DNA of 64,000 nt from Takakia lepidozioides (lineage: Eukaryota > Plantae > Bryophyta), in NCBI GenBank assembly GCA_030704615.1, contig CM060731.1:76694001-76758000 (forward strand), read 5' to 3'. This document shows positions 2,339-25,698 of this stretch, in pieces (position 1 is the first letter of the stretch; each line of letters opens with the position of its first letter). The notes below the pieces were generated by a model that saw nothing but the letters and a program-made list of their open reading frames with translations, was not told the DNA's origin and made no database searches. The translations under genes were made by a program, and so were the position numbers.

Positions 2339-3019
2339 CTAGCGGTTCTCAACATTCAAACATGTTAGATCAAAATAAAGAGTGCATGGAACAAGCAATG
2401 AAACATGAATGGAGCTAGCTAAGTGAGGAGTAGAAGCATGCTGGGGAAGCAAGACATATTGTATGCCAGGAAGAATATCAGAAATCGGGTAAGGGCCATC
2501 AATCTGACGCTTGGTTTTAGATACCTGCTTAACAGGTTGGAGCCTTACATAAACGGACTGGCCTACCTTGAATGACTCAGAATACACAACACGCCTGTTG
2601 TAATTCTTGGCCTGAGCAGCTTGGGCAAACACAATGTTAGACTTAGCTGTTTCGCGCAAACTACGTCGTCTAGCATCCATTGAAAGCAAAAATACTTCCC
2701 AATTTTCAGGCTCAGTTGCGGAGACCTGCAGCCAGGAGATATGCAAAGGAGTTCTACATTTCCTACCATACAAAAGTTCAAAAGGAGAAATTTTGGTACT
2801 GGCATGAATAGAGGTCCTATAGGCAAACAGCAGGATAGGCACAACAATGTCCCATTCATCTATGAGTGACCCATTTTTCTCAAGCATCTAGCATATTGTC
2901 TTGTTAAAACGTTCAGTCAAGCCATTGCACTGTGGGTTAGAAGGCGCAATCACAGCATGTTTAGTGTTTAGATTGAACAACACAATCTCCATAAGCTGGT
3001 TGCAGAATTCTGTACCTTG
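2339..3019 (-). pseudogene. Ty3/Gypsy integrase, C-terminal half, truncated by the CACTA insertion
   Basis: Minus strand reads QGTEFCN...PQCNGLTERFNKTI*MLEK...WDIVVPILLFAYRTSIHASTKISPFELLYG...GPY (rve core end plus GPY/F motif); in-frame stop near 2888; breaks exactly at the CACTA terminus. Confidence 0.85.
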
Positions 3020-5429
3020 CACTACAACAGATCACGCGCTTTAACATCTGCCACATTTGCCCAGTCGTAGTATATATGTCTACAAAATGCAAGGGGACAG
3101 TTCTGGTTGCCATTTGTGACCACCATAAGTCGTATATGCCACCTTGTACCTCCGCCACGTCAGGATCCGCGGTCAAACACGTTTGACCAGATAGGGGAAG
3201 ATGGTAGATACGACTAGGAGTCATGGCCAAAACTGCAACAGGATGACGTGGGCATGGGAATGTATGACTGCCAGTATTCACAACTGCACGTGGCGATTGT
3301 CGGTTGCCCAAGGAGTGTCTATGTGGACGATACAAACATAAATGGATGAAACAGATGCAGGATGTGATTGCAAATGATGACGTGTCAATCTATCATTGCT
3401 CGCAGGGTTGGACATTCAAATGCATTGGATGCAAGTGCATCTAACGGCTGCACATGATGCATGTTACTAACGCGTGGGCTTGGTGGAGAACAGAGACAAG
3501 TCCCGAACATGCATATGAGAGGCGACCATGCACGTTCTATGATGGTTGAAGCGGTTGCACTGCATTTTTCGAAAATCGGCAACACAATTGAAAGACAAAG
3601 GCTTGAGAGAAGACGAAACGATGCATTCAATGGATACGCACCCTGGTGCAAAACACCGGCCACTCATTCACATTCACAGTGATGCAAAATATGTGTAGAC
3701 AAAAAGACCCAGCGGGTAGTTCAGGGCACCCAAAAACGAGCGGCGTTCGCTATACCGCAATCTGCAAATGCACTGGCCTACTCAGAATCATGGCACATTG
3801 TGTGCGCAATGACTCTCAGTAAATTCACCTATGCATTTGATCCTCTTAGTGGTCTCTATCATATGTAAGGTTTTAGAGATTCAGTCTTCAATGTGCATGC
3901 GGAAGAAGCATGTACGCATCAAAGTTGGAAACAGTCAGTAGCTAGAGAAACAGAATACATCTCTTAATGTCAACGATTCACCCAATGCTACTCCTTCGAC
4001 CAAGTGCATCTTAATTTCTACCGATTCCTGCTATCCTAGTTGCAAGTGCTGGGATAGGAGAATACATAATGCCTTCACACACAAGAGTAGCAACAAACTT
4101 CATGACTGACATCCTGTCACAAGTCCTCTACAGGGAGAACCCAATTGGACAGGGAAGCTTAGTGATATGGTACCACGCCGCGTAGCCATATAGGTAGGGG
4201 TACCGACGCCCATAGGCGTCCAGCCTTTTGCTGCAAGCAGATAGGCAGAAAAATTGAGGCACGGCCTCCCTTCTGTGAATGCCGCTGGTTCCAAGCCAGT
4301 GAAGCACAATTAAACAAGCCTCTTCCGCATGACGGCTAATTGGCTGTGCTTCTGCCTGCTCTGCAGCATACTGAATTGTCTGCTCCCTCCGAAGGCGCTG
4401 CGGTGCCATTGAGCTGTGTGTGCAGTTCTCCTGAAGCGGGATCGCATGGTAGTCGTGTGATGATGGGGCGAGTTGGCCCACAACGATGACCACAGCAAAT
4501 GCGTTCGCATGCTAACCGTGTGATGCAAGGGCGACTTGCCAAACGACAAAGTGAACAGGGACGACGTAGACACTGCAAAGAAGCAAGAGCGATGAAGAGC
4601 GAGCAAGAGCAAACAGAATGAAAGGCAAGTGGAGCGAAGTGGAGATATAATCTGCGCTCCCGCCAACCTGCTTCCCGCCAAATTCAAATGCAGTGGCGAA
4701 ATGGGGGCACCGTTGCAAGCCTGACTATCAATGCATCATCAAACTGCCGTGGACTACAAGTTTAGGGGGGTGGGAAACACAAGGGAGAAAATTCTGAGGC
4801 AGGCTAACCGTCTGCCAGCCTTCCTGACAAGGCAAACTGACCACCTTGCATGTCCACGATTCCGTGTTTAGGCCACAAAATAGGCTACTGGTTACAAGCC
4901 TAACGCTGGATTACAGCTAGTGTTCGTCATGGGTATGGCTTGTGCGCAAAGACGAATTACGACTATGTGAGTGTAGCATGCATGATGCAGCAAAGTAAGA
5001 AATTGCAGATTGCTTCTTGTGAAAATTGAAGTGGAGTGGGTACTTCTGCAAAGCCTCCATACTGGTGGCATCGTGACATGGAAACATCACCCGACAAAAA
5101 TGAGGGGAATGGGTAAGGGTTATTCTTAGCAATAGCACAAAATAGCACAAGCCATGGTGGTGGCTCTGCCAGAAGTTCAAACCAACATTAACAGTCATGG
5201 TAAAGGCGTGCTAGTCATAGTGCAACCTGCAAGAAATCTTAGCCCCTCTACACTACAGGTGAACTTCACTACCACCCATGGACCTCTTGAAATCTGGATA
5301 GTAGTGAACAAGCATGATGTCCTAAATGCATTACACATCGACGTCAGGCAGCTCGTCCTCACTGTCATCTTCTTCCTCATCGGTGTTGTCATTCTCCACC
5401 ACAATGGGTGCCTCGTTGCGAACATCCCT

Positions 5430-6803
5430 GTATAGTGAGGCAAGAACTACGGGAGTCACTTCAATAGTCTGGCCCAAATTTGGGCCTGCAACATGTGTCT
5501 CTTCGACTCGTTCAGGGGCTAAGAGGCCTTCCACACTACGAAGACATCGTTACCAATTGACACATCACAAACCACCCAAGAAGATCTGGGGCTTTTCTCA
5601 AGGACCACATTCCACCAAGGTTCATGAACACAAGTGCTGAAAATACCTGCTCCACTTGTGACGGCAGCACAAATGGTTGCTCTTGTGGAGCCAACATTTG
5701 GGAGAAATTCACCAATGTGAACCCACAATCATCCTGCTTCATGGATGCCGGCTGATTGCGGCTCCCCTTCTTTACCCGAACCCACGAACACAACATCACA
5801 ATGGACCTTGTCTTCCCATAGTCAATTTCCAGTATCTCCCTAATGACACCCCACGTATCGCAGGCTTTCTACCACCTCCTCTCCTGCACTGTTTGTAGAT
5901 ACATGGTGGAAAATAGATGACACCCCTGAGTCATATGACACTCTACTTATGCCAATATTGGTTGAAGACACCCTGTAGTGGTTTCCATAAGCTGACATGC
6001 TATTGTATGAAGCTGCAATGATCGAGGGAGGCATGGACAAGTCTAACATTTTGGCAATACATGGGATCAGATTGGGAATTGGGAATCCTTGCCACATGTG
6101 AGCGCACAGCATCAACCAGCCAGTCTACATATTTGGGAGGAAGAGCCAAGTCAGGTGGGTACTCATAGTCCTCCCCATGAGCTGCCCTCCCTTCAACACG
6201 TTCTTCCTGCAGAAACAACCAGTGACTTGCCTCCACACGTGCTCGAATTGTTTCATACATCCTGACATATATGAATGTGTCCCTCCCGTGAGAACCAACA
6301 CGTGCACATAATGCAATTATATGACAACCAGCAACTACAAACAGGCATAAACATCAACAATGAACTGTTGCATTGTCACCTTCGTTAATGAGTTTCTCAC
6401 TTACTCGAACATGGTGCGCATGCTAGGATATTTTTCAATGATGTACTGGTGGAGAACAAAACACAGATCTACCGTGAATTTGCGAGGTTTCCCTGCTCCT
6501 TCCAACACACAGCCAGACACGGATTCCTCCTCTCCTGCATCCCACACTCTCCATCTAGTAGCATCAAAACTGGCCATGTACTCTGTGCAAAAGCCAAGAG
6601 CCTCCTCAAACATATAGCCCTCAGCCATATTGCCTTCGAGCTTTGCCATGTTGCGAATGTACCCTTTGAAATCCTTCATAGCCCGCTCCACAGGGTACAT
6701 CCACCGGGAGGTCACAGGGCCACACAAATCCAGCTCGTCAACTAGGTGAATAAGCAAATGCGTCATTATATCCAAAAAAAAAGGGTGGGAACTCTTTTTC
6801 AAG
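5430..6803 (-). pseudogene. CACTA transposase (TnpD-like), C-terminal part (DUF4218/DUF4216-like)
   Basis: LEKEFPP..DIMTHLLIHLVDELDLCGPVTSRWMYPVER...AEGY; downstream YGNHYRV...YDSGV and EQPFVLPSQVEQVF motifs; frameshifted. Confidence 0.85.
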
Positions 6804-7183
6804 GAGGTAGAGTGTGACAATCACCTTGTCGTGCACCTAATCATCGTGCCACAACATACATCGCTGTCCACCATACATTCTAAGCACACAATCCTAGAAA
6901 GCTATGCCACAATCGCCCCCCTAGCTGGTGATTAGGTCCTTCTAACACCGGATAGCTGACAAGTATTTATCTCAGTAAAATCATCGCTTGGTCTTCAATC
7001 GCACATGTCCCAGTATCTAAAGTCAATAGATCCAGAGGCCGGGTGCAAAAGTAGCCCCATCGTTACTCACCTTCCTGCAATCCATGATCTTCGATTAAGT
7101 ATCCATGGCGTTGAACTCCCATCAGCTAGACCTTGGATAACTTGTCAATTCCACCATTGTCATGCCCACTACCTATGTCCAAG

Positions 7184-7318
7184 GCATCGTGGACACAACC
7201 ATTCTCCACTAGGAACCTCCTCAAGTGGCGGTGTCAAGCATCCCATGTGCCACCCCCTCGAGCATTTGTCACACACCAACATGGCCGCGGCACCACCAGC
7301 ATGCCCACATAGCATGCA
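7184..7318 (-). other. PHD finger at the integrase C-terminus
   Basis: CMLC-x11-CDKC-x4-H-x2-C-x14-CPRC with PPLEEVPSGEW: canonical C4HC3 PHD pattern, in frame with the integrase tail (ORF 7169-7798). Confidence 0.92.
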
Positions 7319-8462
7319 ACGCAACCCTGCAGGTACCACTGCAAGGTTGGGATCTATTCTCCCATCCACATGTGGAAGGTGACATGGCGCACAATTGCGC
7401 ACATGGTCCTTCCATACCATGCCATCTCGACCCTCCAGAATCAACACTCCTGAAGGCAACACCTCCCGGACCCTTAGAATCACACGCCTTGCTGTGACAT
7501 CCAAAGTCGTAGGCGCTGTCTGCTGCAGATACACATAGTCCCCAGGGTGGAAACGCCGAACACCTGGCCGATATCCCCCTCCACGTATAGTGGCGTACAT
7601 CAATGTGTCTCGGTGTTGGGCAATAACAAGGTTCTCAAAAGCCATAGGCATGACTCTCTTGAACAACTCTGTCCGCTGGGCACATGCTTGTGTCCACACA
7701 TCCGGATCATCAAGGTTGAGAACTACTGCAGTCTCCCTGCGAATAGATGCAGTCAAATCTGGCTCTCGGCCAAAGGAAATACGGCGAGAATGAGGCAAGT
7801 GATGCTTGTTTGCTAAACCTGTAGCCCATGGCCAACCAAGGTAGCTGAAGGTCCCAATCTCCTAAGTGTCCCTTCTGCAAGCCATATTTGCGCAAGCCTC
7901 GCTTGATTGTTTGTACAACCCTCTCTGCCAGGCCATCAGCCTAGGGATGATCCCGAGAAGTAGTGCGGTGATCTATCAAGGCTTGCTCACACAAAGCCTG
8001 AAACTCCCCCAAGAACTCTCTCCCCTGGTCCGTGAGTACCTCGGCTGGAGCACCAAATTGGCTAAGCACTTGATCTAAGAATGCATACGCAACCCCCTCA
8101 CTTGCCTTGTCAGGCAATGCCACCAGTTCAATCCACTTGGAGAAATGTTCCACCATCACCAGCACATACTTGTTATGACGAATCGTTAGTGGCAATGGGC
8201 CTGCGAAGTCAAGACTCCAACGATAGCCCAAACCCATAATGGGTAAATGATGCAATTGTGGAGTAGATGCATTGAAAGAAGCTCGCACTCTATCACATAC
8301 CATGCACCTTGCCACTAACTGTTGCACATCTGTGTGCATGCCCCGCCACCAGTACTGTCCTTGCAGCAAACTATGAGTGCGCCGCATCCCAAAATGTTCC
8401 AACTCCTCATGGGCATGGCGTACCAATCGCGCTCGTTGTGTTGGATGAGGCACAATCCTCAC
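7319..8462 (-). pseudogene. Gypsy integrase (HHCC plus DDE core)
   Basis: HAHEELEHFG...CMVC; WSLDFAGP; VLTDQGREF; WDLQLPWLAMGYR; disrupted by stops and frameshifts. Confidence 0.92.
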
Positions 8463-8519
8463 TCGTCCATCCTCCCATACTCGGAGTAGGTGAGTCCCCT
8501 CCCATTTGAACCTATTGGC

Positions 8520-10930
8520 TCATTGTAGGATCCGATCTCTCTCCTTAGCAGTCACACTGGCTGCTGTCTCTCTAGTACGAAGGTAAGCCAACACTGCTGC
8601 ATCTTCATGCACATCCTTAGCACCACCAAGCTTCTCACTGATTTTCGGATCGTCATGCACACCATCTACATGACCAATGCTATGGGATGGACCAGCTTGA
8701 GCTCTCATTGCTAGGATTGCATGCCAGGCACCAGATGCATGCCATCCTGGCACCATCTCCTCATCCGTCTCACCATGCCACCGAGCTCCAGTATCATCAT
8801 GCTTGCTCGTGCATGGATTACGACTCAATCTATCTGCATCCCGATTGACAATACCGGCTCGATGCACCACCTGAAAGTCATATTCTTGAAGCATAAGTGT
8901 CCACCATGCAAGCTTCCCTTTAAGCTTGTCTGACTCCATCAACCACTTCAATGGTTGGTGATCCGTGACAAGGGTGAAGAGATTGCCATAGAGGTAGCAT
9001 GTGAAATGTGTCACTCCCCATACCACAGCTAGACACTCCCCTTCATAGGACATGTACTTCGCCTCGACATCATTGTTTGAGCGGCTAGCATATGCCACTA
9101 CGAACTCTCTTCCCTCATTATCCATCTGTGTGAGCACTGCTCCAATCCCCAGCATACTCCAATCCGTATGTAGCTAGAAAGGCCGCCCCCGAATAGGCCG
9201 CCTCAGAATAGGTGCAGAAGTCAATCGAGCCTTGAGTTCCTAAAAGGCTTCCTCTTGCTCCTCCTCCCACTGCCACTCCTGACCCACCTTGGTTAACTTA
9301 GTAAGAGCCTTTGCAATGTTGCTAAATCCCTTGACAAACCGTCGATAGTAGTTTGCCAACCCCATGAAAGCACGAACTCTGCTAACATCTATAGGGCGTG
9401 GAATGCGTGCAATGGCCTCCACCTTCATCTTTTGAACACCCAATCCTCCAGGGTATATCATGTGGCCTAGATACTCAATCTGGTTGTGGAAGAACTTGCA
9501 CTTCCCTAGGTGCAATTTCAACCCATGCGCTCTCAAGCGATCAAACACCACCTGAAGGTGTCTGTCATGCTCCTCAACCGTAGCACTAAAGACGATGATA
9601 TCATCAATGTAACACCGGGCAAAGTCTAGCCCCGCGAGAATCCTATCCATAACCCTCTGAAACTCTGCAGGAGCATTCTTCAACCCAAACGGTAGGAAGC
9701 GCCATTGGTACAAGCAATCCTTCCCATATTGGTCAATCCCCCAGAATGTCGTCTTTTGCTTGTCAGCCTCTTTGACTGGCAACTGGTGGTAACCGGATCA
9801 TAAGTCCAATGTGCTAAACACCTTCGCATGCCCAATGGCATCAAAGATTTCCTCTGGAGTTGGCATGACATATCTATCGAACTTAGTTTGACGGTTCACA
9901 TGACGATAGTCCCCACACATCCTTCTTTCTGTCCAATTGCCATAGATATCCTTCTTAGCTGGCATCACTGTTGCCGAGGCATACTCCCCGCCTAATAACT
10001 CCACCAATCCAGCTTCGAACAACTCCATAGTCCGTGACTGGATCAATGACCTCTCCATGTCACTATACCGGTAGGGCCTTCGAAATATTGGCGTGTGGGC
10101 AGTTGCAGGGTTGAGTGGACAAAAAACGGCAGATCCTGCTCCATGAAAGTCCATGACCAAAAAACAAAAGTTGATGATACTATCCCAATGTTTTTTTTAA
10201 TGATAGATAATGGTATACTGAACATATTTAGTAAAGAGTCCTACCCCAAATATTAAAGATATAATTCATTAAATATTTTAGTCTATTATTTAGAGAAATT
10301 ATGAAAAACTAAAAATTAGAGTTTACAAAAACATTTCAATATGACACCTAGCCATTGAAGATTATAGGTTTTTATACTTATAGAAAAACAATGACACCCA
10401 AAATCCACAAAACAAGATGAGCTATGGACTTTTCAAAAAACGCCTATTTTTTTGACATATATTAGTCCATATGAGTCAAATGACAAATGATTTTGCCACT
10501 TCAAATACATACCTATGATGTGGACCAAAATGGCCACCTTATGTCCAAATTTCAATGGAATTCACCAATGGCACATAGGAAAACTTGAGTCCATTGTAAT
10601 TCCATTCATTGCGGTAACAGTCCACAATGACGGTGTTCAAAAGTCCATAGCGGAGTCATTTCTTATCGGATTCATGATTGGAGAGTTGCTATGGGTGCGT
10701 ATTGAAGCTAGGAATCCAATGACATATATATTTTCTGGTTTTAATGAGTTAATTCAATTTCAATTGATGACACCATCAATTGCAGTCATCTAAAACTGTG
10801 CTGGTAACGTCCATTCTGGCCAGCCAACCCTGCGTTCACCCGTGTCACTTGCCAAATCAATACGAATCTCCTGACCCTTCAAACTCCCCAAATCCTTCAA
10901 ACCGAAGGCAAAGCAATTTCTATAAGCCCT
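8520..10930 (-). pseudogene. Gypsy reverse transcriptase and RNase H (interrupted by a MITE-like insert)
   Basis: RMCGDYR, FSTLDL, LPFGLKNAPAEFQR, CYIDDII, VRAFMGLANYYRRFV; RNase H GAVL...AYASR...EGECLAVVW...TDHQPL...DADRLSR. Confidence 0.93.
10097..10841. mobile_element. Non-autonomous TIR DNA transposon (MITE-like) inserted in RT
   Basis: AT-rich non-coding block; imperfect ~28-bp TIRs (GGGCAGTTGCAGGGTTGAGTGG vs revcomp GGGTGAACGCAGGGTTGGCTGG); GTGT (or CGTGT) duplicated on both sides; removal restores ...DLASDTPIFRRPYRYS. Confidence 0.85.
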
Positions 10931-11439
10931 TAGAAATCGCTGAATCCTCCGTCTCTCTCCTCCGGTGACTGTAGGTCCAACATCTGGTTCCCAATTGTCC
11001 TCAGTGATTGCAATCTTGGGTACATCAGGCTTGGAGATAGGAGACACATCCTTTGGTTGCTAGATAGTAACCTCTTGGGCCTTGTCCGCCCAATCTGACT
11101 GTGGCGTAGCCTCCACTTGCTCTGCCATAACCACCTTGAGAACATCCTCTGGGGAAGAAACATTCTCAACCTCTTCAAAAACATTGGCCACCTTGGCCTC
11201 CAACTGATCCTCAGTGTATGGCTCTCCCCACTCCTCATACTGCTGCTTGAGATATCCAAGGACTCTCTCTTTCCGCATCTCATCCCACATCTGCCATAGG
11301 TGTTTGCACCCCATGATCCTGTGCTCGCCCCCACTCACTGCCTCAACCGTCCCGGTTGGCAGAGGGGATACAATACCAAATGGGAGTGCAGAAGTAGCCA
11401 CCACTGTCTGCAACCTCCGTTGCTCAGCCATGCACAAGC

Positions 11440-12300
11440 CAATGACCCATGTCAAGCAATTTAGATCCATTGCTTGACCCAACACATGTCGGCGTGATGC
11501 CTCTGACAGAGCTGACACAGCTGTAGTGCCCGTGGCAAATTCCATTGCCCGCTCTCGCTCATCTGCATTGGACTCCACCAATTGTTGTAGCACTCTGTCC
11601 CAAATCAACCCAGGACCATTGTCTCAAAAAGCATGAAGCAAGAAAAAGCTCATGAGCGTAGGCAAGGCCGTACGTGGCTGCCCCACTCGATTTACCACTG
11701 CTAGAGGTGGATGGTCATCATGTCGCACCCTCTGTGGTTGCCTCCCTTGGTCCACCACAATTGAGGTCGATGCACTCGTGATCCCACCGCTGCTGCATCC
11801 AATAGCACCGCCGATCTAATCCAAGACCGCACTTGATACACACTGGCCATAACCCTGGCCCGAGAGTCCCCATAAGAGGAACATTCTCCAAGATATAGGC
11901 TAGAGGTTGCACTTGCCTCGTCTGCAAGTCACGCAACACTCTCAACATCTCCCAAAACAAATGCGATCGTGCATCATGCAAGCCGTTCCCATGACCTGCG
12001 GGAGAGTGTCCTTGGCAAGGCCATCCAACTATCACCAAGTCAATGGCACCATGCCGGTCCAAATCATCCGCCCCCAGCAAGGTAATGTCTGCTGGCAAAG
12101 CCTTTTGATACCCTTGAATTGCTGAGAGAAGCAACAACTCAGGATACCGGTGTGTGAGCAAGGCGATGTGGCGCATAGAAATACACCGAGCTATCTCATC
12201 CTTCTCCACATACAAGTACTTGCATACTTTAATCCCAGCTTGCAACACTCCTGCAAGCCCAGTGCTCATACCTCCAAACAGATCTAGCAAACAAATCCCC
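11440..12300 (-). pseudogene. Dnmt3-like C5 cytosine DNA methyltransferase domain within the retrotransposon pol
   Basis: Motif I LLDLFGGMSTG, II YVEKD, IV IDLVIVGWPCQGHS (PCQ at 12012-12020), VI YILENVP; after a frameshift VIII LDAAAVGSRVHRPQLWW; IX/X ERERAMEFATGTT...SEASRRHVLGQAMD. Unpermuted motif order. Confidence 0.92.
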
Positions 12301-12699
12301 GAGTCAGGTGGTTGCCAGGTAATGGGCACTATATCCAAAGGAGCTAACTGAGGAGGTCCAGGTGATATCACTGAACTCCCCTCACTCATCAATGGAAAGA
12401 CCTCTTGCCATGCTTGGTGCACACTCTCGTCTGCTACTCGTTGCAAATTCCCAACCGTACCCCACAGTGGAATATGCACAGGCACATGAGGAAGCAAATC
12501 AGCATTGTATGCCAATTGTTTGTCCTCATCAGGTGGTGGCCTATCATCTGCATGATTATTGCCCTCCAAGAGCTCACCACCCCAAGCCGCCACCCCTGAG
12601 AATGCAGCCAATGTGGGCATCATGTTCCTCTGATCCACCGTTACATTCCCAATAAACCGCACTGGGAGTAGTGCACATCGGCCATCCCCTGACTGCCAT

Positions 12700-15197
12700 T
12701 CCGGCCTGTAGGATGCCGTTTCTTCCCAAAAGTCCAAAGTAAAGCCCATCGGGTATAACACAGCTCCACCAACAAGCACATCATAAGACATCGCGCCCAT
12801 AACAATGGCTTTAGCTCTCATGACAGAGCCATCTGTAGGATGATCTGGTTGCAATCGAATGAAGAGCTCATGGCGTGTAATCCCATGTGCCTTCTCTGAA
12901 CCGCCCAAAGATGTTTGAATTTGGAAAGGACGAGGCTCCAAATCCGCCTCTGTAGGCCCAAGCCTACAATTGCTGCTTTCCCCAACATCAATGGCTGTGC
13001 TCCCGAGTCCAACAAGACCTGCAGTGGCCTATACCTCCTCCCGGCCGGGCCACCCAGCTGAAACACACCATCCTGATTGTCCACCAGGACTACCCCATGA
13101 GTCACCATACTACGCTCAATGGCTGGTCTAGCTGGCAACTCTTGCAACCTTGTAGCTGCCGCTTGCCATGGCGCAGCTGTGGCTGTCTTCACCCTTGAAT
13201 CCAGGGCATCCATGCACTGCACCTGATCCGCTATCCCCACAGACAGTGCCGATGCATCACCACTCTCACAGAGTCTAGCTGCCAGTCTAAACACTGCAGC
13301 TGGCCGCATCCCCGGCATTACAATTGTCGTGGTAAAAAATAATGGAGCTTGGCAAATTGCCGTAGCCGCCCCCAACAATGTACTGGTTGCACCTTGTTTT
13401 GCAGCACCACCCACTGGCATTTCCCGAGCCACACCAACTCTCCCCAATGGCACTCGTGGCTCTACCTCTGACACACTTGGACGAGCGGGTGCCATCGATG
13501 GCATAGTTGGCACTGTCTCAGCCAATGTAAAAGACTGTGGAAGCCTGGTCTGCCGACTTGCTTCCCCTCTTTGTGGATCAAAATCCACATCCGCTCCTCT
13601 TGGCTCAGGAGCACGCGTTGCTGCTTGAGTGACAGCAGCTGCAGAGTCCACATGCAATGGTCCTGCAAGTGTGGCTCCACACATGAAGCCCATACCAATC
13701 TGGTCTTCCGTAGGCATAGGAGGTTGTGCAGGTGGGGCTTGAACCTCAAGCCTTGGAGCTGGCGCAACATGAGTAGTGGCCATGGCAGCAAGACGTTGCT
13801 CTAGCTGGGCAAGTCTATCCACCATGCCTTGGTCATGACCCTGACCCTGACCCTGTATTCCTTGGTTTTGGTTACGACCTCCACCATGACCTTTGCCTCC
13901 TCTACCTCTCTGGACTACATTGCCTCGTCCTCGGCCACCATTGTTCCATTGGAACTGGCCTGGCCGTAGCTCAGGATGCAAGTCATAACAATGGGCCTCT
14001 TCATGCCCATACTTGCCACAATGCCCACATTGTAGTTGTGTAGGCTATGCCTGTGCCGGCCCTTTGCCTCTCTCTGGGCAATCTCTCTTAACACGGGGTC
14101 CTCCACAATCCCAACATGTCACACCCGACTGTTGTTGGCCTGAGAATGAAGGAAGTGACCTCTGCAATTGAGATCCTATCGGCCCTTCCCTGGGCTTCGC
14201 CTGAGCCCTCTTGTTGCCTTGAGCACGTTGGGGTAGTGGCTGTTGTTGGCCAAGAGCCCCACTTCGTTGTGTCTCCTTACCAAACCCCACCATGACCACT
14301 TGCTCCTCCACCATATTGAGCTCTATCCGCTCTGCCAGCAAAAACACATTTGCTAAGGTGGGTTGGTCCACTTGTAGGAGAGTTGCATCCCGCACCCTTC
14401 TCCTCAGCTCCTTGTCCAGGATCCCATACCAGAACTGGACTGCTTGAGCTTCTGTAACCCCTTGGGTTACGTTTATCAAGCGCCTCATGCGAGTGTAAGC
14501 CTCCCTCAAACTCTCAGTAGACCTTTGTTGGAACTCTTGCAAGCTCCGCAACTTCTCTGTCCTTATCCCTTGGTAGTTTCTCCTCAACTCCTCAGGGTTA
14601 AAGGCAGGCACGGGTGTTGGTGCTGCAGCGGGAGCTTGAGTGGATTTCCCTAGCTCTCGTACCACTTGTCCCACTACTAGTGCTTGCAGTTGGAGATGTT
14701 TGTGTAGCTGCTGGTGTCTCCGCTGCCCTTGTGCCTCTAGTGATGGAGACATAGTCAGGTGACCAATACACCCGCCATTCCTCAATCTCCACCTCATGTC
14801 CCCGCCTAAACTCATGGTAGTCATCCATGGGCGGCCCCTCAAGGTGCTGAAACAACCCCTTCTACGCCATAAAAGGCGTAAACAGTTGTGGATTGCGCAT
14901 CTGCTGCAAATCACACCAACTATCAAACTCCTGTATGAAATCATCAAGCTCGATGGTGCCCACAGCTCCAGAGTACCGACATGGCCCCTTGGTAGCTCCA
15001 TACATTTCCTCCATCGTATCCCACAACAATGGCACGGAAATGGCTTGCACCCTCGGCAAGAATCCTCCTAACTCTGAGTCTGAACCTTCCTCAAAAGACA
15101 CTGAAGGTGAAGGTGGCCTAAACCGCACACCTCGTCTTGTATACCCATTAGTATCGCTGGTGCTCGTACCGGCACTCTCCTCAGCAACTGGTGGCAC
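12700..15197 (-). pseudogene. Gypsy gag and aspartic protease
   Basis: FQQRSTESLREAYTRMRRL gag motif; knuckles CWDCGGPRVKRDC and CGHCGKYGHEEAHC; RG-rich segment; VLLDSGAQPLM...YDVLVGG protease; frameshifted. Confidence 0.85.
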
Positions 15198-15680
15198 CTC
15201 CGTGATGAAAATTCACAACCACACCTGTTGTAAACCTCTATCTCTAATCCCCCTTTCCACAAGGTAACCGGGTAGAGAACCTGTTGCGGCTTATGGCTTA
15301 GACTACTAGGTTTGTAACATAAACCTGCACTTGCATCCACCGCAAGCACTCATATGGTCTGCTGGTCATCAACCCAGCCTCACCATAAGAGAAACAATGA
15401 TGGTCTGACTGGTCATCACCCCAGCCTCACCACCAACAGCATGCTCTAGGATTGGCTGGTGATCAAATCCGGACCAACCTCCTATGAAAACAAGCACCCA
15501 CACAAACTGACATGATGCACAGTCAAGCATGCAGGTGTGGAGAGGATTCAAACACAAGAAAATCAATACAGTAACTCCCCCACAAAAAAAAAACACTCCA
15601 CAGTGTCGCTCCTGTAAGGACACCCCAGCCCAAACCCGGACTGATTCTTGTCTCCACGTACAGAAAGGTTTTGGCCTACA

Positions 15681-17964
15681 TAGAGGGTGGAAGACTACGA
15701 GGAAGAGAGACTAAAGCAATTCCTAATCCCAGAATGCTCTCATCCTACTAGTCTCCCCCTATCTCTAAACGCTCTTGCTCATGACCAACAGACATAACTA
15801 CCTTCCAGGGTCTCTCAAATAACTCTCCAAGAGCCCTCAAGATGTCTCTCAAACAATCTCACTAAGGCCCCCAAAGACTGTCAAATCTTGGCCCTCAAGA
15901 ACCCCAAAAAGTCCTTCAGACAAGTTGCCAAAGACTCCTTAAGCTCGCCAAATATTAGCCTCCAAGGACCCCAAAATAGTCCTCCAAACAGTCCTCCAGA
16001 TACACCCTAGATGTCATACTCTTTTAATTAAAACGTATGGTAGGCAAAGTCTCTCCACTTGTATCCATACACTGCTCATAAAAGAGTATGGTGGGGCAGA
16101 GGGAGCCCATACCTTGTTCACAAAAACGTATGTTGGGCAGAGGGGGCCCATACGTTGTTCACAAAAGTGTATGTTGGGCAGAGGGGTTCCATACGTTGTT
16201 CAAAAAAGTGTATGGTGGGGCAGAGGGAGCCCATACACAGTTTCTTGAAGAGTATGGAGACTAGGGTTTGTAGAGTATAGTAAGAAACACCTTCTTCATG
16301 GTATCTTCCCCCCTAACATGCATGCAAAATTGCATTATCTTACTTTGCAATGCATTCATCCCCAATTGACAAGTTCCTCTTGATCTCCTTGGAACTCATA
16401 GCACGCTAATGTGCCAAATGACAAGCGCCAAGCTTTGCTTGAATTTGAATTTTGTATGCCATCTTCCATGTGCTTTCCCTTGCATGGGCTAGTCACACAC
16501 ACTTCCACCTCTTGACCTAGGTGTTGTCTTCATTCATCATAATGTGTATCCACACCTCTATTCAAGAGCTTATCTTCTCAAACTTGAAGTCACAAGCCCT
16601 AAAGAGCATGCTCCACATAAGCATCACTTGCTTAATCAACCATCCACCACAAAACTTAAGCAAAAAGAGAATGAATACATGAGCTTCACCTTCCCCTTCC
16701 TTGTCTTGTCACAAGCTAATGTATGGTTGAAGTTGCTATGCATGCCGTGAGCCACAATCTCCTTTCTTCATGAAGACCACCTCCAATGATCTCCCATATG
16801 TGCTCGAAGCTCTTCAATACTCTAGGCTTGGTTTCACATCATCATGGATAGAATTCTCACCCACATGCTTCCCTTTGGAGTCATCTTGAGCTTCTTGATG
16901 CTCTCCAAGTGGTTGCTTTTGTTGTCTTCAAGCTCTAGCCTATGTAGCTCCTTGGTTTTTCTTCCACAACATGCACCACCTCATACACAAGGAATGAACT
17001 TGCTCACTTCACTTTCTAACTCTCCTCGAGCTTGAATTGGAAACCACACTTGGAAAGCATGCTCCACACATGCGCCACTTGCTTGGTCAATCACTTGCTT
17101 CACCAAGAGCAATGCAAGAACTCATAGAACTAGCAAAAGCACTCCCTTCTAGCGCCGCCTTCGCTTGCTTGTTTGTCAACCAAATGAAATCCCACTTGAC
17201 TTCATTTCACCATGGATAGAACAACCACTTCTTAGCTTCTCTTGAGCTACTCAATGCTCCTCAAGCTACCCTTGTTGTACTCCTTCTATGGTGTTTCCAA
17301 CCCAAGCGTGTGCCGCTCTTTGGCTTCTCTTTCACACCATGAACAACTAGAGCTTGCTCTTGAAACCCTAGTGTCTATCTTCTCCACACACAAGACGCTT
17401 CTCTTGTGATGCAAGAGCTCTTTTCAAAAGCTCTCCACCTCTATAGAGCAAAGTAATGCTTCTCAAACCCTAACATCCATGTTCTCCACGCCATAAGGAT
17501 TTTCCTTTGCAATACCTTGCAACACAAGAGCTCTTTACTAAGCTCTCTCCAACACACAAGTGCTAAACTAACCCTTACACTCCGCACTCACAAGCATAAG
17601 GAGATCTTCTTGTAGTGATAATGGAAGTGAACACACAATGGAAACACTCTACTCATGAATCCACTCAATCACATAAATTAAGTCAAGCCAAGGGCACCTT
17701 TGCTAAAGGAATCCACCCTACAAAGCCCTCACCATACTCCCTCTCAATACCTAGAGCTATGGAGGTGGGAGAGGCTCATGTAGGCTCAACTACAAGAAAA
17801 TGAGCCCTCCTCAACACTCACAAGGGGAAAACCCATCCCCATGTCCCAAGTGAGGTTTGACACCTCACTTGGCATGTGAGACCAAATGAAGTCCCAACAC
17901 ACAAAATACAAATACAAATATCCAAAATATCCTAGTTAACTAGAAGTAGGTAATTCTAGTTAAC
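15681..17964. mobile_element. Unclassified degenerate repeat (possibly LTR-retroelement derived) into which the DNMT-Gypsy appears to have inserted
   Basis: No convincing ORF, internal short repeats, PPT-like AGGGGGGAAG on minus near 16305-16314; together with 6804-6812 it interrupts the CACTA transposase between ...MALVM and LEKEFPP. Confidence 0.45.
16035..16240. repeat. ~41-bp tandem repeat, about 5 copies
   Basis: GTATG(G/T)TGGG(G)CAGAGGGRGCCCATAC..TGTTCACAAAA units. Confidence 0.85.
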
Positions 17965-19189
17965 CATGACTAAAGCCATGACAACCTCCTTCTTCAGCTC
18001 TTTGTGCTTGCTGGGATCAACCATTTTTGCACAGAGTTTGCGAAACACTCGGGATACTCGCAATATGGAATTTCGTACGCCCTTAGCCATGAAACCACGT
18101 AGAGCAAGAGGGAGAACTTGCTGCATAAGCACATGGTAGTCATGTGATTTTAGTTGTGAGAGTTTTTTTTTTACAACATATTTTTTAAAGGCAGATGCAT
18201 ACCCCGTTGGCACTTTCACTTTGTGATTGTGTCCAGGAACACCCTCAGTTCATCTCCTGTGAGCACATACGGCGCTGCGGGCATCACGAATGTGTTCTCC
18301 CTCGTGGGATGCCTTTGCAACCACAGGTGGGGACGAATGCCTTGTAGCTCAAAGTCACGACGCACCTTCATGGTATCATTTTCCCCAAAAATTGTCTTGA
18401 TGATATTTTCTGTGACATTCTTCTCGCAATGCATCGTGTCAATGGTGTGGCGGATCAGTAGGTGCTGCAATTCATGCGCCAAAATGATTCACAGGAAAAT
18501 CAAATGGTGACACAAATATGCCAACACACTAACACACATCTGTGAATAAAAAACAAATGCACAAATATGCGAAATAGACAAGCATGAGTGAGGAGTCCCC
18601 GTACCTCCCAATAAGGCAGACGATACAGAATGGACAACCGCTTGACACCATGGATTTTTGAGGGATCAGCCTCTGCGATTGAATCCTCATCCTCAACCCA
18701 TTTTGAGTATTCCTGAGCACGCATCTTGATTTCACTGGCTATCAGGAGTAGTGGAGCATGTCTCATTTCTCGTTCGCCATTGAAGAGCCTAGATCTCTTG
18801 TATGCATGGTCGGTGGGAAGAAATCTCCAGTGCCCTTGGAATATAATTTTGTGAGAGGCTGCCGAATACCGCGAATCAACTCCAAAGCCACAGGCAGGGC
18901 AACCTACATAGCCTTGGTGAACTTGACCTGCTAGCCGTACGCTAGGAAGTCGTGTATGCACCACATTATGATGGCCCACATGTTGAAAGCCCGTTCATCC
19001 CGAATGCTGGCCACATCATGGGCTGGGACTCCCACCCACAATTTCGCCAGCTCCTCCACGAGGGGTTCGAGATACACATCAATGTTCTTCATCTTCACGG
19101 ACTCCTTCCCTGGAATGAGCAGCGACAACATGACAAAGAATTTCTTGATCACCAACCAAGGAGGTAAATTGTAGTTGAGTAGTAGGATG
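17965..19189 (-). pseudogene. CACTA transposase, middle part
   Basis: LNYNLPPWL...LLIPG...DVYLEPLVEEL...WCIHDF; HRFLP-like; LPYW; RHTIDTMHCEKNV; KVPTGYAS; LKSHDYHVLMQQVLP. Confidence 0.9.
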
Positions 19190-19801
19190 TGTCATGGACA
19201 TAGCCCAGAGGAACTTACCAGGAGTAAATACCAGAAGTTACCAAATTACCATGTTACCGAAAGTTACCACGACTTATCGTGATTTACCATGATTTACCAT
19301 GATTTACCAAGTTACCGGGAGTTTACCAAATTACCAAGAGTAACTTGGAAAACTACTCAGGAAGCTTCCTTTGGAGGAAACTTCTCCATCAAGATACCTC
19401 CTTTGTTTAAGGAAGCTTCTCCATCAAGAAACCTTTGTTTAATCTTGGAAACTTCTCCAGCAAGAAATCTCCATAAGGGAAGCTTCTTGGGGAAGCTTCT
19501 TAGTAGCCAGTATATATAGGAGGCGAGACTGGACACTCTTCAGTCTCGCCAACACAAGTTCAAGCTACTCTTGTTCCAAGTCCAGTACTCCAGTCCAGCT
19601 TCCAGTATCCAGTCTAGTTTCCAGCATTCCAGTATCCGAGTCGAGTTCCAGTATTTTGTACTCTTGTCCACTGTTATAAAGATCATCTTGATTTATGTTC
19701 ACCTACCATGCATTCGGCCACGCCGACCTTGACTTCTTGTCTAGTCTTGTACCTCTAGTCTGATCTCTTCTTTGTATTCTGTCATGTTCTCATCCTTGAC
19801 A
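19190..19801 (+). repeat. 5' LTR of the chromovirus
   Basis: TG...CA; about 20 substitutions plus a 10-bp indel versus the 3' LTR (counted by eye); TATATATA at 19511. Confidence 0.97.
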
Positions 19802-19803
19802 GT

Positions 19804-19814
19804 TTGGCGAGACT
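19804..19814 (+). promoter_or_regulatory. Self-priming primer-binding site
   Basis: TTGGCGAGACT is the exact reverse complement of AGTCTCGCCAA at 19542-19552, ~30 nt downstream of the LTR TATA box. Confidence 0.8.
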
Positions 19815-19839
19815 AAAGTTTGTTCTTTAGTTAGTTAAG

Positions 19840-21423
19840 ATGGAAGGCACATTTGCGGAAATGGTCACCACATTGCAGAGTCTTTAGCTCCAGATGCAAG
19901 AACTTCGTACATCTACCGCCTAATTGCAAGCTGATCAGTCTCAAGATCTTGGCAACGCTCTCCACAATTTGCAACAACAAATTTCAGAGTTAAAGGAGTC
20001 GAACAATGGATCTTCAACCATACGAGTCCCTACTGCATCAGCTCCTACTGCAACGGTTCCTCTTCAACAGATTATGAGAGAACCAAAGATTAGCATGCCC
20101 GAGAAATTTGATGGGACGAGATCAAGATTTCGCGGTTTTGTTCAACAAGTACGACTGTTCCTACGACTACATCCACAACGCGATCCCGATGAAGGTATTC
20201 AAGTGGGATTCGTAGGCACCCTTCTGTCAGGCACTGCCCTATCTTGGTTTGCACCGCTATTAGAAAAAAATTCGCATTTACTATATAATTTTGAAGCATT
20301 TATGTCCTTTTTCACTGCAACGTTTGGAAAAAATGATAGAGAGAGAGAGTTGCAGAAACAAAAATGCGAAATCTTCGACTAGGAGCACGTCCTACTTCCG
20401 TTTATGCCGCCGAATTTCGACAACTTGCGTGCGACCTCGACTGGAATGAAAAAAGCCTCATTAGTCAGTTTCGATGTGGACTAAAAGATGATGTAAAAGA
20501 TTTGTTGCTGACAATGCCAAACGTGAGCACACTGAGTGAATTCATCACCCAAGTCATTGCATGCGATAATCGTTTGTTCGAAAGATGTCAAGAGAAGCGA
20601 TCTGGATGGTCTACGACGTATCATGCCACTACTACGATCCATCAGACATCCAGTAGTGATCATATGCTGATTGATGTTGTCCGATTCAAGCCATTGACGC
20701 CACAAGAAAAACAAAGACGGTGCTCGAATGGATTATGCCTCTATTGCGGAGAAGAAGATCACATAGCATTAAACTGCCCCAACAAGAGAAGATTCAAAGC
20801 TCGGGGCATAACTCAAGTGTTCGATACGAGGAGGTCGGAAAACGAAGATGTCCAGTCACAGTAGGGATCATGCGGCCGGACATCACAAATTCCTTACCGA
20901 AAAAATGTCTCTTTCTACCTCCAGACCCTGCACCTTGCTTCACAGTTCCGGTAAAAATCAGAGTGCAAAATTGAGATATCACTGTAGAAGCACTTTTGGA
21001 CTCAGGAGCTTCAGCTTATTTTATGGACAAAAACTTTGCGAAACAAAATAATTTAACGCTCGTAAAGAAGAAACTCTCGGCCCCCGTTGAAGTCATTGAT
21101 GGATGACCATTAGCATCAGGAAATGTGGACCATGAAACTCGACCACTTGAAGTGAAGCTTAAAGATCAAGCATCACATATTGTTTTCAATGTCATCCAGT
21201 CTCCAACGAATCCTGTAATCCTTGGACTTCCCTAGTTCGTATTTCACAATCTCGAAATCGACTGGCGATCGCGAAAAATTTCTGCAAGACAAAAATGTAG
21301 AAATAGCAAAGGTATTCAACCCCTATTCCTTGGAGCTAGAGCTTTCATGAGAGCTACAAAAAAAAGAGGCGACATTTGCACTTTATGCGACTCCGATCAA
21401 AACCACAACAGACAAAGGTACTT
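19840..21423 (+). pseudogene. Chromovirus gag and protease
   Basis: EPKISMPEKFDG...LLSGTALSW; YAAEFRQLA; CLYCGEEDHIALNC knuckle; ALLDSGAS protease near 20990; stops and frameshifts. Confidence 0.9.
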
Positions 21424-22148
21424 TGTCGCGCACCTCAATTCGGTAAACTCCCCTTCAAGTCATAGTTATTCGCTTTGATGCGCGCGCCTGACTCCCAACC
21501 TGGCCGCCGGGCCAACTTGGAGCTTCGGCTGCTCACCGGGACATAACGGCTCCCTTTCGCTTCCCTCTTAAACCCTCCACCTAATTGGGACTAGGAGAAT
21601 TCCCTTTGGTAGATGGCAGTCCGGAACAGCTCCCCACTCTTTGGTCGCTTTCCGGCTCGCTTGCTTACTCACTAGTTTTTGGTCACCAACGGGCTTGCAC
21701 CGTTCTCGGGGTTACTACTCCCTATATATACTTCTGTAGCTGTCCGCGGGGGTTTCACAACTAGCCATGCCATTTTATGGCGAACCACCACGAAGACCCT
21801 CGATTCCCGGTGGTGAGTCGCGGTGAGTCTTGGCCCGCTCACCACGGCCCCTATGGACCGTGATGAGTCCCAAGACTCCCCACGACTCCCACCTCGAGGT
21901 CTCCGCCCCCATGGTGAGTCCTATGTCACCCCCACTAAGTCCCACTAAGCTACCACCACCCCTTGTGGAGCCACCCCCACCGCAACCCGGTGTGCGGGGC
22001 TCCACCTAGTGAGCGCCTCCGCTTCCCTGAGTGCCTTGGGCACTCAAGGGTGCCTCAGCCCCCCATACCTATCGCTGCCGCTGCCCCCACCACAGGGGCA
22101 GCCCTCATGTGTCCCGACCCCCTGCCCTCAAGGCAAAGGGCCGCGACA
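21424..22148. mobile_element. Solo LTR nested in the chromovirus pol
   Basis: TGTCGCG...CGCGACA terminal inverted repeat; TACTT duplicated at 21419-21423 and 22149-22153; GC-rich, with TATATATA near 21723. Confidence 0.92.
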
Positions 22149-25094
22149 TACTTCAACATTATCCGCTCAATATCAAGATTTCAATGATGTCTTCGAGAAG
22201 AAAAATGCAGACATATTGCCAGAATATCGACCTTATGACTGTGCAATTGAGTTACAAGAAGGAGCCCAACCACCATTCGGCCCAATCTATAACTTATCCC
22301 ATATGGAGTTGGTTGCATTACGTGAATACATTGATGAAAATTTGTCGAAGCACTTCATCCGACATTCAAAATCACCCGCGGGGGCGCCTATCTTGTTTGT
22401 GAAAAAGAAGGACGGATCATTACGCATGTGTGTCGACTATTGCGGTCTCAACAAAGTCACAATCAAGAATCGTTATTCGTTGCCGCTGATTTATGGGCTT
22501 CTCGACCAGCTGGGACGAGCGAAGATTTTCACCAAAATCGACTTGAGAGGAGTTTATAACCTTGTACGGATAAAAGAAGGAGACGAATGGAAAACAACTT
22601 TTCGAACAAGGTAGGGACATTTTGAATACAGTGTTATGCCTTTCGGTCTTACAAATGCTCCAGCAATTTTTCAACATATGATGAATGACATCTTTCGAGA
22701 ATTTTTAGATGACTTTGTAGTCATCTATTTGGACGACATTTTGATATTTTCACAGAATGAAGAAGACCATGGCCGCCATGTACGCATTGTCCTTGATAAA
22801 TTAAGAGAAAAAAGACTATATGCCAAGTTGGAGAAATGTCTTTTCCATCAATCTGAGGTCGAATTTCCGGGCTACATTATTTCCGACAAAGACGTCTTTA
22901 TGGATCAGAAGAAAATACAGACCATCATCGAGTGGATTAAACCAACTTCGGTCCGAGATGTACAATGTTTTCTAGGCTTTGCAAATTTCTATAGAATCTT
23001 CATCAATGACTACTCCAAAATTGCTGCACCATTGACACGACTCACAGGGAAGGACAAATTTGTATGGGACGAGAAGGCTGACCATGCATTTGAAAGGCTG
23101 AAGCAGGCATTTACAACGGCTACCATACTGGTACATGCAGACCCATCTAAACCATTCTTCTTAGAAGCAGATGCATCGGACTTTGCACTTGGTGCGGTAC
23201 TCTCTTAATACGGTACAGATGGTCGACTCCACCCTGTTGGTTTTCGTTCTCGCAAATTTTCCACTGCGGAGATCAATTATGAAATCCATGACAAAGAACT
23301 TCTAGCGATTATCGATGCTTTTGAGGAGTGACGACATCTATTGGAGGGAACTAAACATCAGGTCACTGTCTATACCGATCACAAAAACCTCGAATATTTT
23401 ATGAGTGCTCGTGTTTTGAATCGACGTCAAGCGAGATGGAGTATGTCACTAGTAAGGTTTGATTTTATTATTACCTACCGTCCCGGACATTTTCAAGGAA
23501 ATTCAGATGCTCTCTCGCGACGATCGTATCTTACGCCAAAAGAAAGGGATCCAGCTTTTGACCAACAAAAATCCATCATCCTGAAACCAGCAAATCTCCA
23601 ATTGAATATGCTATCCATGTCCACCTATGACGACGCAGAGATCATAAAGGAGATTCAGGAAGCACTGAAGAGCGACCATTTTGCTACGACACTACGAAGT
23701 CAACTAAATCAACCTCGAGACAACCCACATGTTATAAACGACTTCGAATTCAAAGATGGCTTACTTTACTTCAAGGGACTTCTCTATGTACCTCCAGGAC
23801 CTACACGACTTCGAATTCTTCAAACATGTCATGATCTTCCGGCTGCAGGACATTTCGGCTTCAACAAAACATTGAAGTTGATATCCAGGGACTATTGGTG
23901 GCTGCAGATGTGGAAACTCGTGAAAGAATTTATAAAATCTTGCGACATGTGTGCTAGAGCGAAGGGACCACGACATCGACCTTACGGCCTTCTTCAACCA
24001 ATACCCATTCCCAGGGTCCATGGTCATCTGTATCTATGGACTTTATTACGGACCTTCCAATTTCCAAGACCACCGATTCAATCCTTGTTATTGTAGATCG
24101 TTTTACGAAGATGACACATTTCATTCCATGTAATAAAACGGTTACCGGCGAGGAAACTGCAAGTCTCTTCCTCAATAATATCTACCGCATTCATGGACTC
24201 CCAAAGGACATCGTATTTGATCGAGGACCACAGTTCATATCAAATTTCTGGAGGGGATTATTTCACATATTGGATACTAAGATCAACCTCTCTACAACAA
24301 ATCATCCACAGACTGATGGTCAAACCGAACGTGTAAACCAGATTTTGGAGCAGTATCTTCGCTGTACGATAAATTATCACCAAGATAATTGGACGGACCT
24401 TGTGTCATTGGCTGAGTTTGCCTACAACAACACTATACATTCTTCGACCAAACAAACTCTATTTTTCTCCAATTATAGTCATCATCCTCGAGCAAACCCT
24501 TTCCACATGAAAACTGTTGGAAGCCCTGCTGCAGAAAACCTTACTACTCATCTTGCTACGATTCACAAGGAGCTTACATCTCATCTCGCAGAAGCTCAAA
24601 AACAATACAACGAGTATGCAGATCAACGTCGTCAACTCCAACCCCAGTTCAAGGTCGGAGATCGTATGTGGCTTCTTCGACGGGACATACAAACCTCGCG
24701 ACCATCAAAGAAGTTGGATTATCAACGCCTGGGACCATTCAAAATTATTCGACAAATAAATCCGGTCAGTTTTCGGCTTGGACTCCCACGAAGTATGCAC
24801 ATCCATCCAGTCTTTCATGTTTCATTATTGGAGTTGTATCATCCATCGAATATTCCAGGGAGAGTTTCTGTACCACCTCCACCAATCGAAGTTAATCAGG
24901 AAATTGAATATGAAGTCGACGAAGTCCTAAACTCTCGCATCAAATATAAACGTTTTGAGTATTTCGTACATTGGAAAGGTTACGACATCAGCGAACGAAC
25001 GTGGGAACCTTCATCCAACCTCGTCAATGCCTCTGACAAAGTCCAAGAGTTTCATCAACGATATCCAGCTAAGCCCCGAGCTACATGTCAATGA
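22149..25094 (+). pseudogene. Chromovirus RT-RNaseH-integrase-chromodomain
   Basis: LRMCVDY, YLDD, DASDFALGAVL, TDHKNL, MDFITDLP, DRGPQF, GPF, and chromodomain EYEVDEVL...YFVHWKGY...TWEP; internal stops. Confidence 0.95.
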
Positions 25095-25698
25095 GACGTC
25101 ACAAACGATGATGTCAGCCAAGCTAGCTTCAAGGAGAAGACTCCACATTCAATGTACTTGATACACGCTAAGGAGAGAGAAACACCACACATCAGTATAT
25201 ATAGCTACACTTCCAACACTCTTGCATCTTGTATTGGCAGCATGGAGTCACAAGAACCAAATACATTGGAATTGTCGCTTACCCAACTACCAGATCAGCC
25301 GTTCCGACTCTCACGACCTTCAATATTACGCTGACGCTCTCGAGACGATGGGCCACCAATGCGATGTGTATTTCCTCATTTGGACCCCGTACGACAGCAA
25401 GTGGAGCCTACTCGAAGTCTAATAATTCAGTTGGAGGTTGAGGCTTCGGACCCAGAGGGCAACGAAATCATGTTTGAAGGCAACTTCGAAAATCAGAATG
25501 CTCAAATTACTGCGTGGTCCCAAGTTCAAGGTGTTGGACACTATCGATGGTTACAGGGACCTATAAATCATTTGAATCAAGAACGAAGAGCCGAATACTT
25601 GGCAAGTACCATTCGTCGGATTTTGGATTTTCTCCAACTCTAAGCAAGTCCAAGATTTTACCGCTCCTCGAGGAACTCGGCGCTAGAGGAGGGGGTGA

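Follow-up and report, generated by a model that had tools for sequence, protein, structure and literature searches.

The 64-kb window analysed here (the whole 64,000-nucleotide stretch of Takakia DNA) contains a dead copy of a green-plant Gypsy retrotransposon family. In intact members of this family the encoded enzyme is likely to act on the element's own cDNA, methylating it ahead of integration, a reading to which we assign a probability of about 0.55. The Ty3/Gypsy element occupies 11,157 bp of the minus strand (6827-17983) with the domain order Gag-PR-DNMT-stop-RT-RH-IN-PHD, and sequence comparison places it in a retrotransposon family of liverworts and mosses with algal relatives. An earlier reading of the window from its letters (the sequence-only reading) had proposed a land-plant Ty3/Gypsy element in which PR and RT flank a Dnmt3-like domain with its motifs unpermuted, a proposal that the domains and relatives described below bear out. 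Gypsy-DNMT3 elements as a kind have been known since 2018; the present family extends the kind to land plants and chlorophytes and shows a conserved stop at the end of ORF1, a PHD-bearing integrase and LTR-less ends. The features of the window element are as follows:

6827..17983, minus strand: whole element in A-coding-B form (TGTCATG...CACGACA), with a 7-bp terminal inverted repeat and a 4-bp flanking duplication
17984..17987, no strand: target-site duplication, 5′ side, ACCT on the plus strand
6823..6826, no strand: target-site duplication, 3′ side, ACCT on the plus strand
15213..17983, minus strand: 5′ non-coding region, end A plus leader
14045..15212, minus strand: Gag (PF03732, E 1.5e-4, under the cut-off; 44-65% identity to the N-terminus of Marchantia P0001)
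14003..14029, minus strand: zinc-knuckle-like Cys/His motif CGHCGKYGH, read from the sequence
12690..13040 (end coordinates approximate), minus strand: aspartic protease, LLDSGA at 13015-12998 (relatives match PF13650/PF13975)
11411..12302, minus strand: Dnmt3-like C5 cytosine methyltransferase, motifs I-X unpermuted, broken here
11054..11062, minus strand: in-frame TAG then CAACCA, the conserved end of the Gag-PR-DNMT ORF
9241..11008, minus strand: reverse transcriptase split by an insertion, with YIDD at 9611-9600 (PF00078, E 3.9e-26)
10092..10840, no strand: AT-rich, MITE-like insert of 749 bp bounded by imperfect terminal inverted repeats
8880..9240, minus strand: RNase H (PF17917, E 1.9e-31)
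7319..8444, minus strand: integrase with H2C2 zinc domain, rve core and C-terminal region (PF17921, E 1.8e-15; PF00665, E 1.5e-15)
7184..7318, minus strand: PHD finger fused to the integrase C-terminus (PF00628, E 2.3e-11)
6827..6923, minus strand: repeat B of the 3′ end, preceded by a purine-rich tract at about 6923-6914 (similarity of 80-85% to end B of the related locus L006 in a pair of short segments)

Excision of the element in silico restores a continuous CACTA transposase reading frame exactly, and because of this and the perfect terminal repeat the 5′ end was set at 17983, replacing a first candidate at 15799 that had two mismatches to the terminal repeat. At the DNA level the 5′ leader hardly resembles those of three moss-like loci (see below), and the 5′ non-coding region (15213..17983) may contain a nested insertion. 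A Pfam search of the ORF bearing the zinc-knuckle-like motif gave no match, inspection by eye recognised no tRNA primer site after end A and self-BLAST found no LTR pair in the window element. The observed/expected CpG ratio was similar throughout (0.53 in the DNMT, 0.46 in the whole element and 0.53 in the window) and was uninformative.

The Gag-PR-RT-RH-IN order with a DDE integrase, the TG...CA ends and the 4-bp target-site duplication (TSD) are all those of Ty3/Gypsy elements, whereas the two direct LTRs of that class are missing, the LTR pair being absent in the window and at locus L015 and the repeats being split at L006. The element is an atypical Ty3/Gypsy member, classed by its enzymes. 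It was not assigned to the chromoviruses, carrying a PHD finger rather than a chromodomain at the integrase C-terminus, nor to Troyka, whose CG...CG ends, 3-bp TSD and animal hosts are not found here and which is also without split repeats. Phygy (REXdb; Neumann et al., 2019; PMC6317226) is likewise a non-chromovirus moss Gypsy of similar length with a 4-bp TSD but differs in its NCGN target sites and its tRNA PBS and has no extra domain listed; none of the three TSDs recorded here (ACCT, TACA and AATC) is NCGN and this assignment was also rejected.

Two forms of end are present in the family. L015 reads end A-coding-end B between TACA duplications, while L006 reads A-coding-B-AT-A-B between AATC duplications, its A copies being 88% and its B copies 96% alike. 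A degenerate A-B-A-B pattern with no recognisable 5′ end occurs at L018, such that the full split-repeat form is seen in two loci, clean in L006 and degenerate in L018. Among the seven visible 3′ ends, including that of the window, two continue into A-B and five stop at B. B has a purine tract ahead of it, and the join CA-AT-T(G)TC looks like a circle junction; a DDE integrase that cut circular cDNA at this point would yield both end forms. This is akin to circle-junction integration and we tentatively suggest, at somewhat under even odds, that the split ends arise from integration of circular DNA at the B-AT-A junction.

The window copy is dead. Frameshifts lie near 14651 (Gag), 12953 (protease) and 11867 and 11750 (DNMT), with about 25 codons fewer at the last of these than in the relative P0003. 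Gag is stopped at 14864 and 14047, the DNMT has a nonsense codon at 11626 and a motif VIII without its second conserved arginine, and RT-RH-IN carries five stops plus the 749-bp insertion in RT, which is skipped by contigs in 4/4 sequencing runs compared (GC 0.38 in bin 10001-11000). The copy had been described previously as frameshifted, which is correct, but the extra frameshifts, stops and insertion make the damage greater than was stated. The C-terminal PHD finger, the conserved stop at 11062-11060 and the LTR-less ends had gone unremarked in the sequence-only reading.

All of the C5-MTase motifs listed by the sequence-only reading lie on the minus strand in unpermuted order, 3′ of LLDSGA and 5′ of the RT YIDD (LDLFGG 12287-12270, GWPCQGHS 12026-12003, ILENV 11894-11880, HRPQLWW 11772-11752, ERERAMEF 11560-11537 and RRHVLGQAMD 11494-11465), and in the PF00145 search that it had called for, the ORF at 11718-13028 (motifs I-VI) matches with E 1.1e-11 and 45.2 bits against a cut-off of 22. 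The domain is intronless and unpermuted with catalytic residues: across 29 aligned DNMT domains the catalytic Cys and motif VI Glu are invariant and the motif VIII arginines are present in at least 90%, while the Pro preceding the catalytic Cys is absent in 17/99 motif-IV matches. Against the PDB, a family profile built from 29 sequences scored 97.7 bits with DNMT3A, 91 with DNMT3B, 46-50 with entries 4onj/4onq (named 'DNA methyltransferase'), 38 with DRM2 and 35 with HhaI, and one intact Marchantia domain searched singly had DNMT3A as its top match (E 3e-11; DRM2 0.21). Foldseek with the AlphaFold model of the intact Marchantia domain (pLDDT 93.9) likewise gave DNMT3A/B as best (E 5e-19, TM 0.72). 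The profile and the folded relative agree with the earlier description of the domain as Dnmt3-like in placing DNMT3A/B first, and it is on this ranking by score and predicted structure that the label rests. The lead of DNMT3A on the profile is modest, since four phage methylases (L019-L022, chosen from 585 tblastn matches) score 67-84 bits on the same alignment. The closeness of these phage C5 enzymes to the DNMT3A score is a lead on prokaryotic relatives of DNMT3. In IMG/VR no family member was found for P0025, the profile matching only viral methylases 25-45% identical, and the ESM Atlas was uninformative, its two phage clusters scoring the same as its one Streptophyta cluster, which may be that of the query itself.

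Among the 22 longer proteins found with the window PR-DNMT ORF as query, 15 carry the name Marchantia polymorpha and one that of Sphagnum fallax. With the intact P0003 domain, 76 proteins of similar length (including Calypogeia fissa, Sphagnum troendelagicum, Closterium and Monoraphidium) and 39 longer ones, adding Scenedesmus, were found, most of these being metagenome proteins. One Marchantia cluster has 18 members, of which at least five are Gag-PR-DNMT ORFs of 1,278-1,281 aa, and full-length Gag-PR-DNMT ORFs in M. polymorpha (e.g. Mp_4g09160, Mp_Vg00370 and Mp_5g06330) are annotated as hypothetical genes. The 39 long relatives comprise six with PR-DNMT-RT in one ORF, 31 with RT-RH-DNMT-IN(-PHD) and two ending after the DNMT; in Closterium P0056, the DNMT shares its ORF with RT and RNase H. 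Proteins P0124-P0155, with P0130 from Scenedesmus, make up a large and apparently chlorophyte group in which the DNMT lies after RNase H and before integrase; several have a non-Pro residue before the catalytic Cys, and no description of this group was found in the literature searched. The 119 stretches matched in a scan of metagenomes yielded 18 loci, with the DNMT followed by RT in 11 and the rest without the downstream part; these loci are called moss-like because two of them, placed in trees, group with a Sphagnum protein (100/99). At L005 a second, more distant RH-IN-PHD element (12628-14484, 40-48% identical) directly follows the DNMT element. In sequencing run X1, 45,883 contigs fall on a 10-kb stretch, most 90-99% alike and with the DNMT included, and the family is abundant in the species of the window or in one closely related to it; contig depth in X1 is not copy number and was not used for ranking domains.

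In a DNMT tree of 56 rows with complete or nearly complete domains (fragments and near-duplicates excluded) the window is placed among liverwort and moss sequences in a group of 12 rows (100/99), while 12 RH-DNMT-IN rows and two short rows form a separate group (100/97). An RT-RH tree of 39 rows, made by a quick method, joins the window with Marchantia and two moss-like loci (99) and unites 25 RH-DNMT-IN rows (99), such that one land-plant group and one RH-DNMT-IN group are common to both trees. Thirty element rows form one group (99) against four phage methylase outgroup rows, with long branches and an unsure deep order. These trees would fit one old DNMT capture inherited with RT, after which the module moved in the Scenedesmus-containing group, and horizontal transfer between lineages may have occurred.

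Between the window and the moss-like loci, pN was 0.21-0.30 in the DNMT, 0.18-0.19 in RT and 0.13-0.20 in integrase at a saturated pS of 0.68-0.78, giving a DNMT pN/pS of 0.29-0.42 at saturated pS; by these comparisons the DNMT is under purifying selection between them. Among the decayed moss-like copies themselves, dN/dS was 0.32-1.32 for the DNMT N-half (28 pairs), 0.34-0.77 for the C-half and 0.33-0.54 for RT (10 pairs), a weak constraint, as expected of decay after insertion, and one that is looser for the DNMT than for RT. The alternative that the window copy captured a host DNMT3 fragment in a one-off event draws on nothing beyond the decay of that copy and is extremely improbable given the same position of the domain in liverwort, moss and algal elements, the matching trees and the strong constraint. 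The sequence-only reading had sought relatives sharing the PR-DNMT-RT order, and these exist in liverworts, mosses and algae; the two outcomes that it considered fatal, no PF00145 match or a one-off capture, are refuted by the PF00145 match and the family data.

The DNMT and RT share a frame, with TAG at 11062-11060 between them followed by CAACCA in the window. The readable moss-like junctions have a stop in 10/10 (five TAG and five TAA), then CAA in nine, while L018 was excluded from this count for an insertion there; with the window included CAA follows the stop in 10/11, compared with 2/82 decay stops in the loci. As the ten loci belong to one closely related family, they are not ten independent cases, and the junction DNA is that read in the window and these loci. 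The window context is an exact match to CARYYA, a described readthrough context (PMC3441728), while the loci read CAACCC, one base off the consensus, with CAACTC at L014 and TAACCC at L006. TAG-CAA-CC has been kept in the window although synonymous sites are saturated and the linker is otherwise hard to align. The ORFs of Marchantia, Calypogeia and metagenomes stop 70-99 residues past GQAMD (the moss-like loci at 99), and in a 30-row DNMT group none of the 25 intact protein rows, all of which were counted, extends more than 180 residues beyond the domain, some of them maybe ending at contig edges; gene models that fuse the DNMT to RT skip the stop site. Three folds, made without shuffles, gave no evident conserved RNA structure 3′ of the stop.

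These sequences indicate that in land plants the DNMT belongs to ORF1, whichever way Pol is translated. The sequence-only reading had put the domain inside pol: its position between PR and RT stands, but the land-plant clade has it as the last domain of the Gag-PR ORF, ahead of the conserved stop. Expression of the DNMT at Gag levels would not be universal, given the 31/39 long relatives with the RNase H-DNMT-integrase order and the 6/39 with PR-DNMT-RT in one ORF. From the stop context, Pol is likely to be made by occasional UAG-CAA readthrough, and the DNMT would therefore be produced in the amounts of Gag and enter particles with it. Translation of Pol from its own start, by reinitiation or from a separate RNA, could use the in-frame ATG found two codons past the stop in 10/10 moss-like loci and would accommodate the half of these loci that have TAA instead of TAG. 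The window copy is without that ATG yet retains TAG-CAA-CC across saturated divergence and a poorly alignable linker, in a context that matches CARYYA exactly, and an own start for Pol is an improbable account.

In the favoured mechanism, Gag-protease-DNMT would be translated as one ORF up to the conserved stop, with RT-RNase H-integrase-PHD in frame beyond it, occasional readthrough would yield Pol with the DNMT at Gag levels and packaged, and the packaged Dnmt3-like enzyme would methylate the element's own cDNA prior to integration. The intact enzyme is quite probably active, judging from its conserved residues and model. We hold it slightly favoured that the element's own cDNA is the main substrate, so that in a host whose genome is methylated the new copies would already carry methylation on arrival. 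In yeast, the related SymbioDIRS-Dnmt3 carries out de novo methylation of CG, while KnitGypsy-Dnmt3 of Klebsormidium nitens gave no methylation there, a result called inconclusive by the authors (de Mendoza et al., 2018; PMC5890265). The inactivity of the Klebsormidium enzyme in yeast and the 17/99 motif-IV matches without the Pro would be in keeping with a domain retained for binding nucleic acid or for structure, with methyl transfer slight or absent. Human DNMT3B failed in the same yeast assay (PMC5890265), and with an invariant catalytic Cys and motif VI Glu and nearly invariant motif VIII arginines, a merely structural role is very doubtful.

A less remote alternative, though still an unlikely one, is that the DNMT acts after integration or in trans, silencing inserted copies or altering nearby chromatin and so limiting harm to the haploid-dominant host. 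The ORF1 location would yield far more enzyme than one cDNA requires, and host-beneficial dampening was listed as a possibility by de Mendoza et al. (PMC5890265). Against this, its being fused to Gag and protease suggests that the enzyme is packaged in particles, and where the DNMT lies beside the integrase, as in most of the long relatives, it stays with the cDNA-bound enzymes.

The solved domains nearest to the element PHD are those of CHD4, PHF12, KDM5B/5A PHD1 and PHF21A, several of which read unmethylated H3K4. By analogy with chromodomain integrases, the PHD may well steer integration via histone H3 tails, for which the odds seem rather better than even. Chlamydomonas transposons are known to carry PHD fingers as accessory domains (PMC8557442). 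In its most extended form, which we regard as speculative and unlikely to hold in full, the lineage would predate the chlorophyte-streptophyte split, a Dnmt3 made at Gag levels through the leaky stop would pre-methylate circular cDNA, and the PHD-bearing DDE integrase would insert the circle at the internal B-AT-A into chromatin chosen by histone marks, leaving LTR-less copies missed by LTR finders. Were this true, active Marchantia copies could contribute to host methylation patterns.

Retrotransposon-borne methyltransferases in Symbiodinium and Klebsormidium, mentioned in the sequence-only reading, are indeed described in the 2018 study (PMC5890265). KnitGypsy-Dnmt3 has in common with the element here its Ty3/Gypsy domains, an intronless unpermuted Dnmt3-like domain and purifying selection, and its DIRS-like A-coding-B-A-B repeats have a counterpart in L006 (de Mendoza et al., 2018; PMC5890265). 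It differs in its host, an alga rather than land plants, and in a DNMT that lies in the Pol ORF with RT, where the land-plant clade has a conserved stop between them; the main text of that source has no match to 'PHD', which the element here carries (PMC5890265). No Klebsormidium-named protein was among the matches of the protein searches and the likeness is by description. SymbioDIRS-Dnmt3 similarly has a retrotransposon-borne Dnmt3 fused to replication proteins but is a tyrosine-recombinase DIRS element and an independent capture (PMC5890265). The EpiLTRs of Cymbomonas and Euglena are also LTR elements with a methyltransferase and a chromatin reader but carry DAM, a DNMT4-related enzyme and a chromodomain and are stated to be distinct from Gypsy-DNMT3 (bioRxiv 10.64898/2026.05.21.726589). 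Bryophyte host DNMT3 (e.g. MpDNMT3b) and DRM share the Dnmt3-type catalytic fold, but host DNMT3 is multi-exonic and DRM permuted (PMC5890265), whereas the element domain is intronless, unpermuted and fused to Gag-PR.

'Streptophyte' DNMT3 retrotransposons are mentioned, as previously described or citing the 2018 study, in two further sources (bioRxiv 10.64898/2026.05.21.726589; PMC12344493). The literature searched gave no land-plant description of the family, in line with the earlier statement that no characterised land-plant family was known; supplementary trees, Repbase and subscription papers could list bryophyte members. The 2018 study left open the activity of Gypsy-borne DNMT3 and why a transposon keeps an enzyme that silences it (PMC5890265). 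The intact Marchantia ORFs bring this question into a transformable model with methylation mutants, and the conserved stop predicts enzyme dosage. LTR-less ends would explain how a common bryophyte family could escape LTR-based surveys, and element ORFs may confuse counts of host DNA methyltransferases.

Elsewhere in the window, direct repeats at 1501-2011 and 29789-30297 (92% identical) are probably the LTRs of an outer retroelement, which has integrase-like remains near 2540-3070 and into which CACTA, Gypsy-DNMT and chromovirus elements totalling 28 kb have inserted in nested fashion. CACTA transposase pieces (Transposase_21, DUF4218 and DUF4216) lie on the minus strand at 5536-6826, 17984-18994 and 26281-27249, split by insertions. 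A second Gypsy element at 19190-26301 on the plus strand has LTRs 95% identical and a chromodomain integrase, with a pol CpG observed/expected ratio of 0.87 versus 0.46 in the DNMT element. An intronless RPS16 gene (30556-30978, plus strand) adjoins the outer repeat, exons of a fructose-1,6-bisphosphatase gene (PF00316) lie at 36965-39288 on the minus strand, and exon-like pieces at 47390-53839 (minus strand), with no Pfam match, are presumed from their motifs to resemble an E(z)/CLF-type PRC2 gene. A gene at 60375-63276 (plus strand) has two B3 domains, its protein having a best cluster with Sphagnum proteins (only 55% over 92 aa) and angiosperms as the next named matches. The B3, RPS16 and fructose-1,6-bisphosphatase genes, together with the CACTA elements and the chromovirus, are those of a land plant, and the weak Sphagnum match, taken with where the element falls in the trees, suggests a seed-free one. 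Tandem arrays occupy 39717-40780 (about 252 bp) and 41121-41501 (about 24 bp), and a MITE-like short repeat of about 70-100 bp is present in several copies in both orientations at 48764-60135 and also near 42280.
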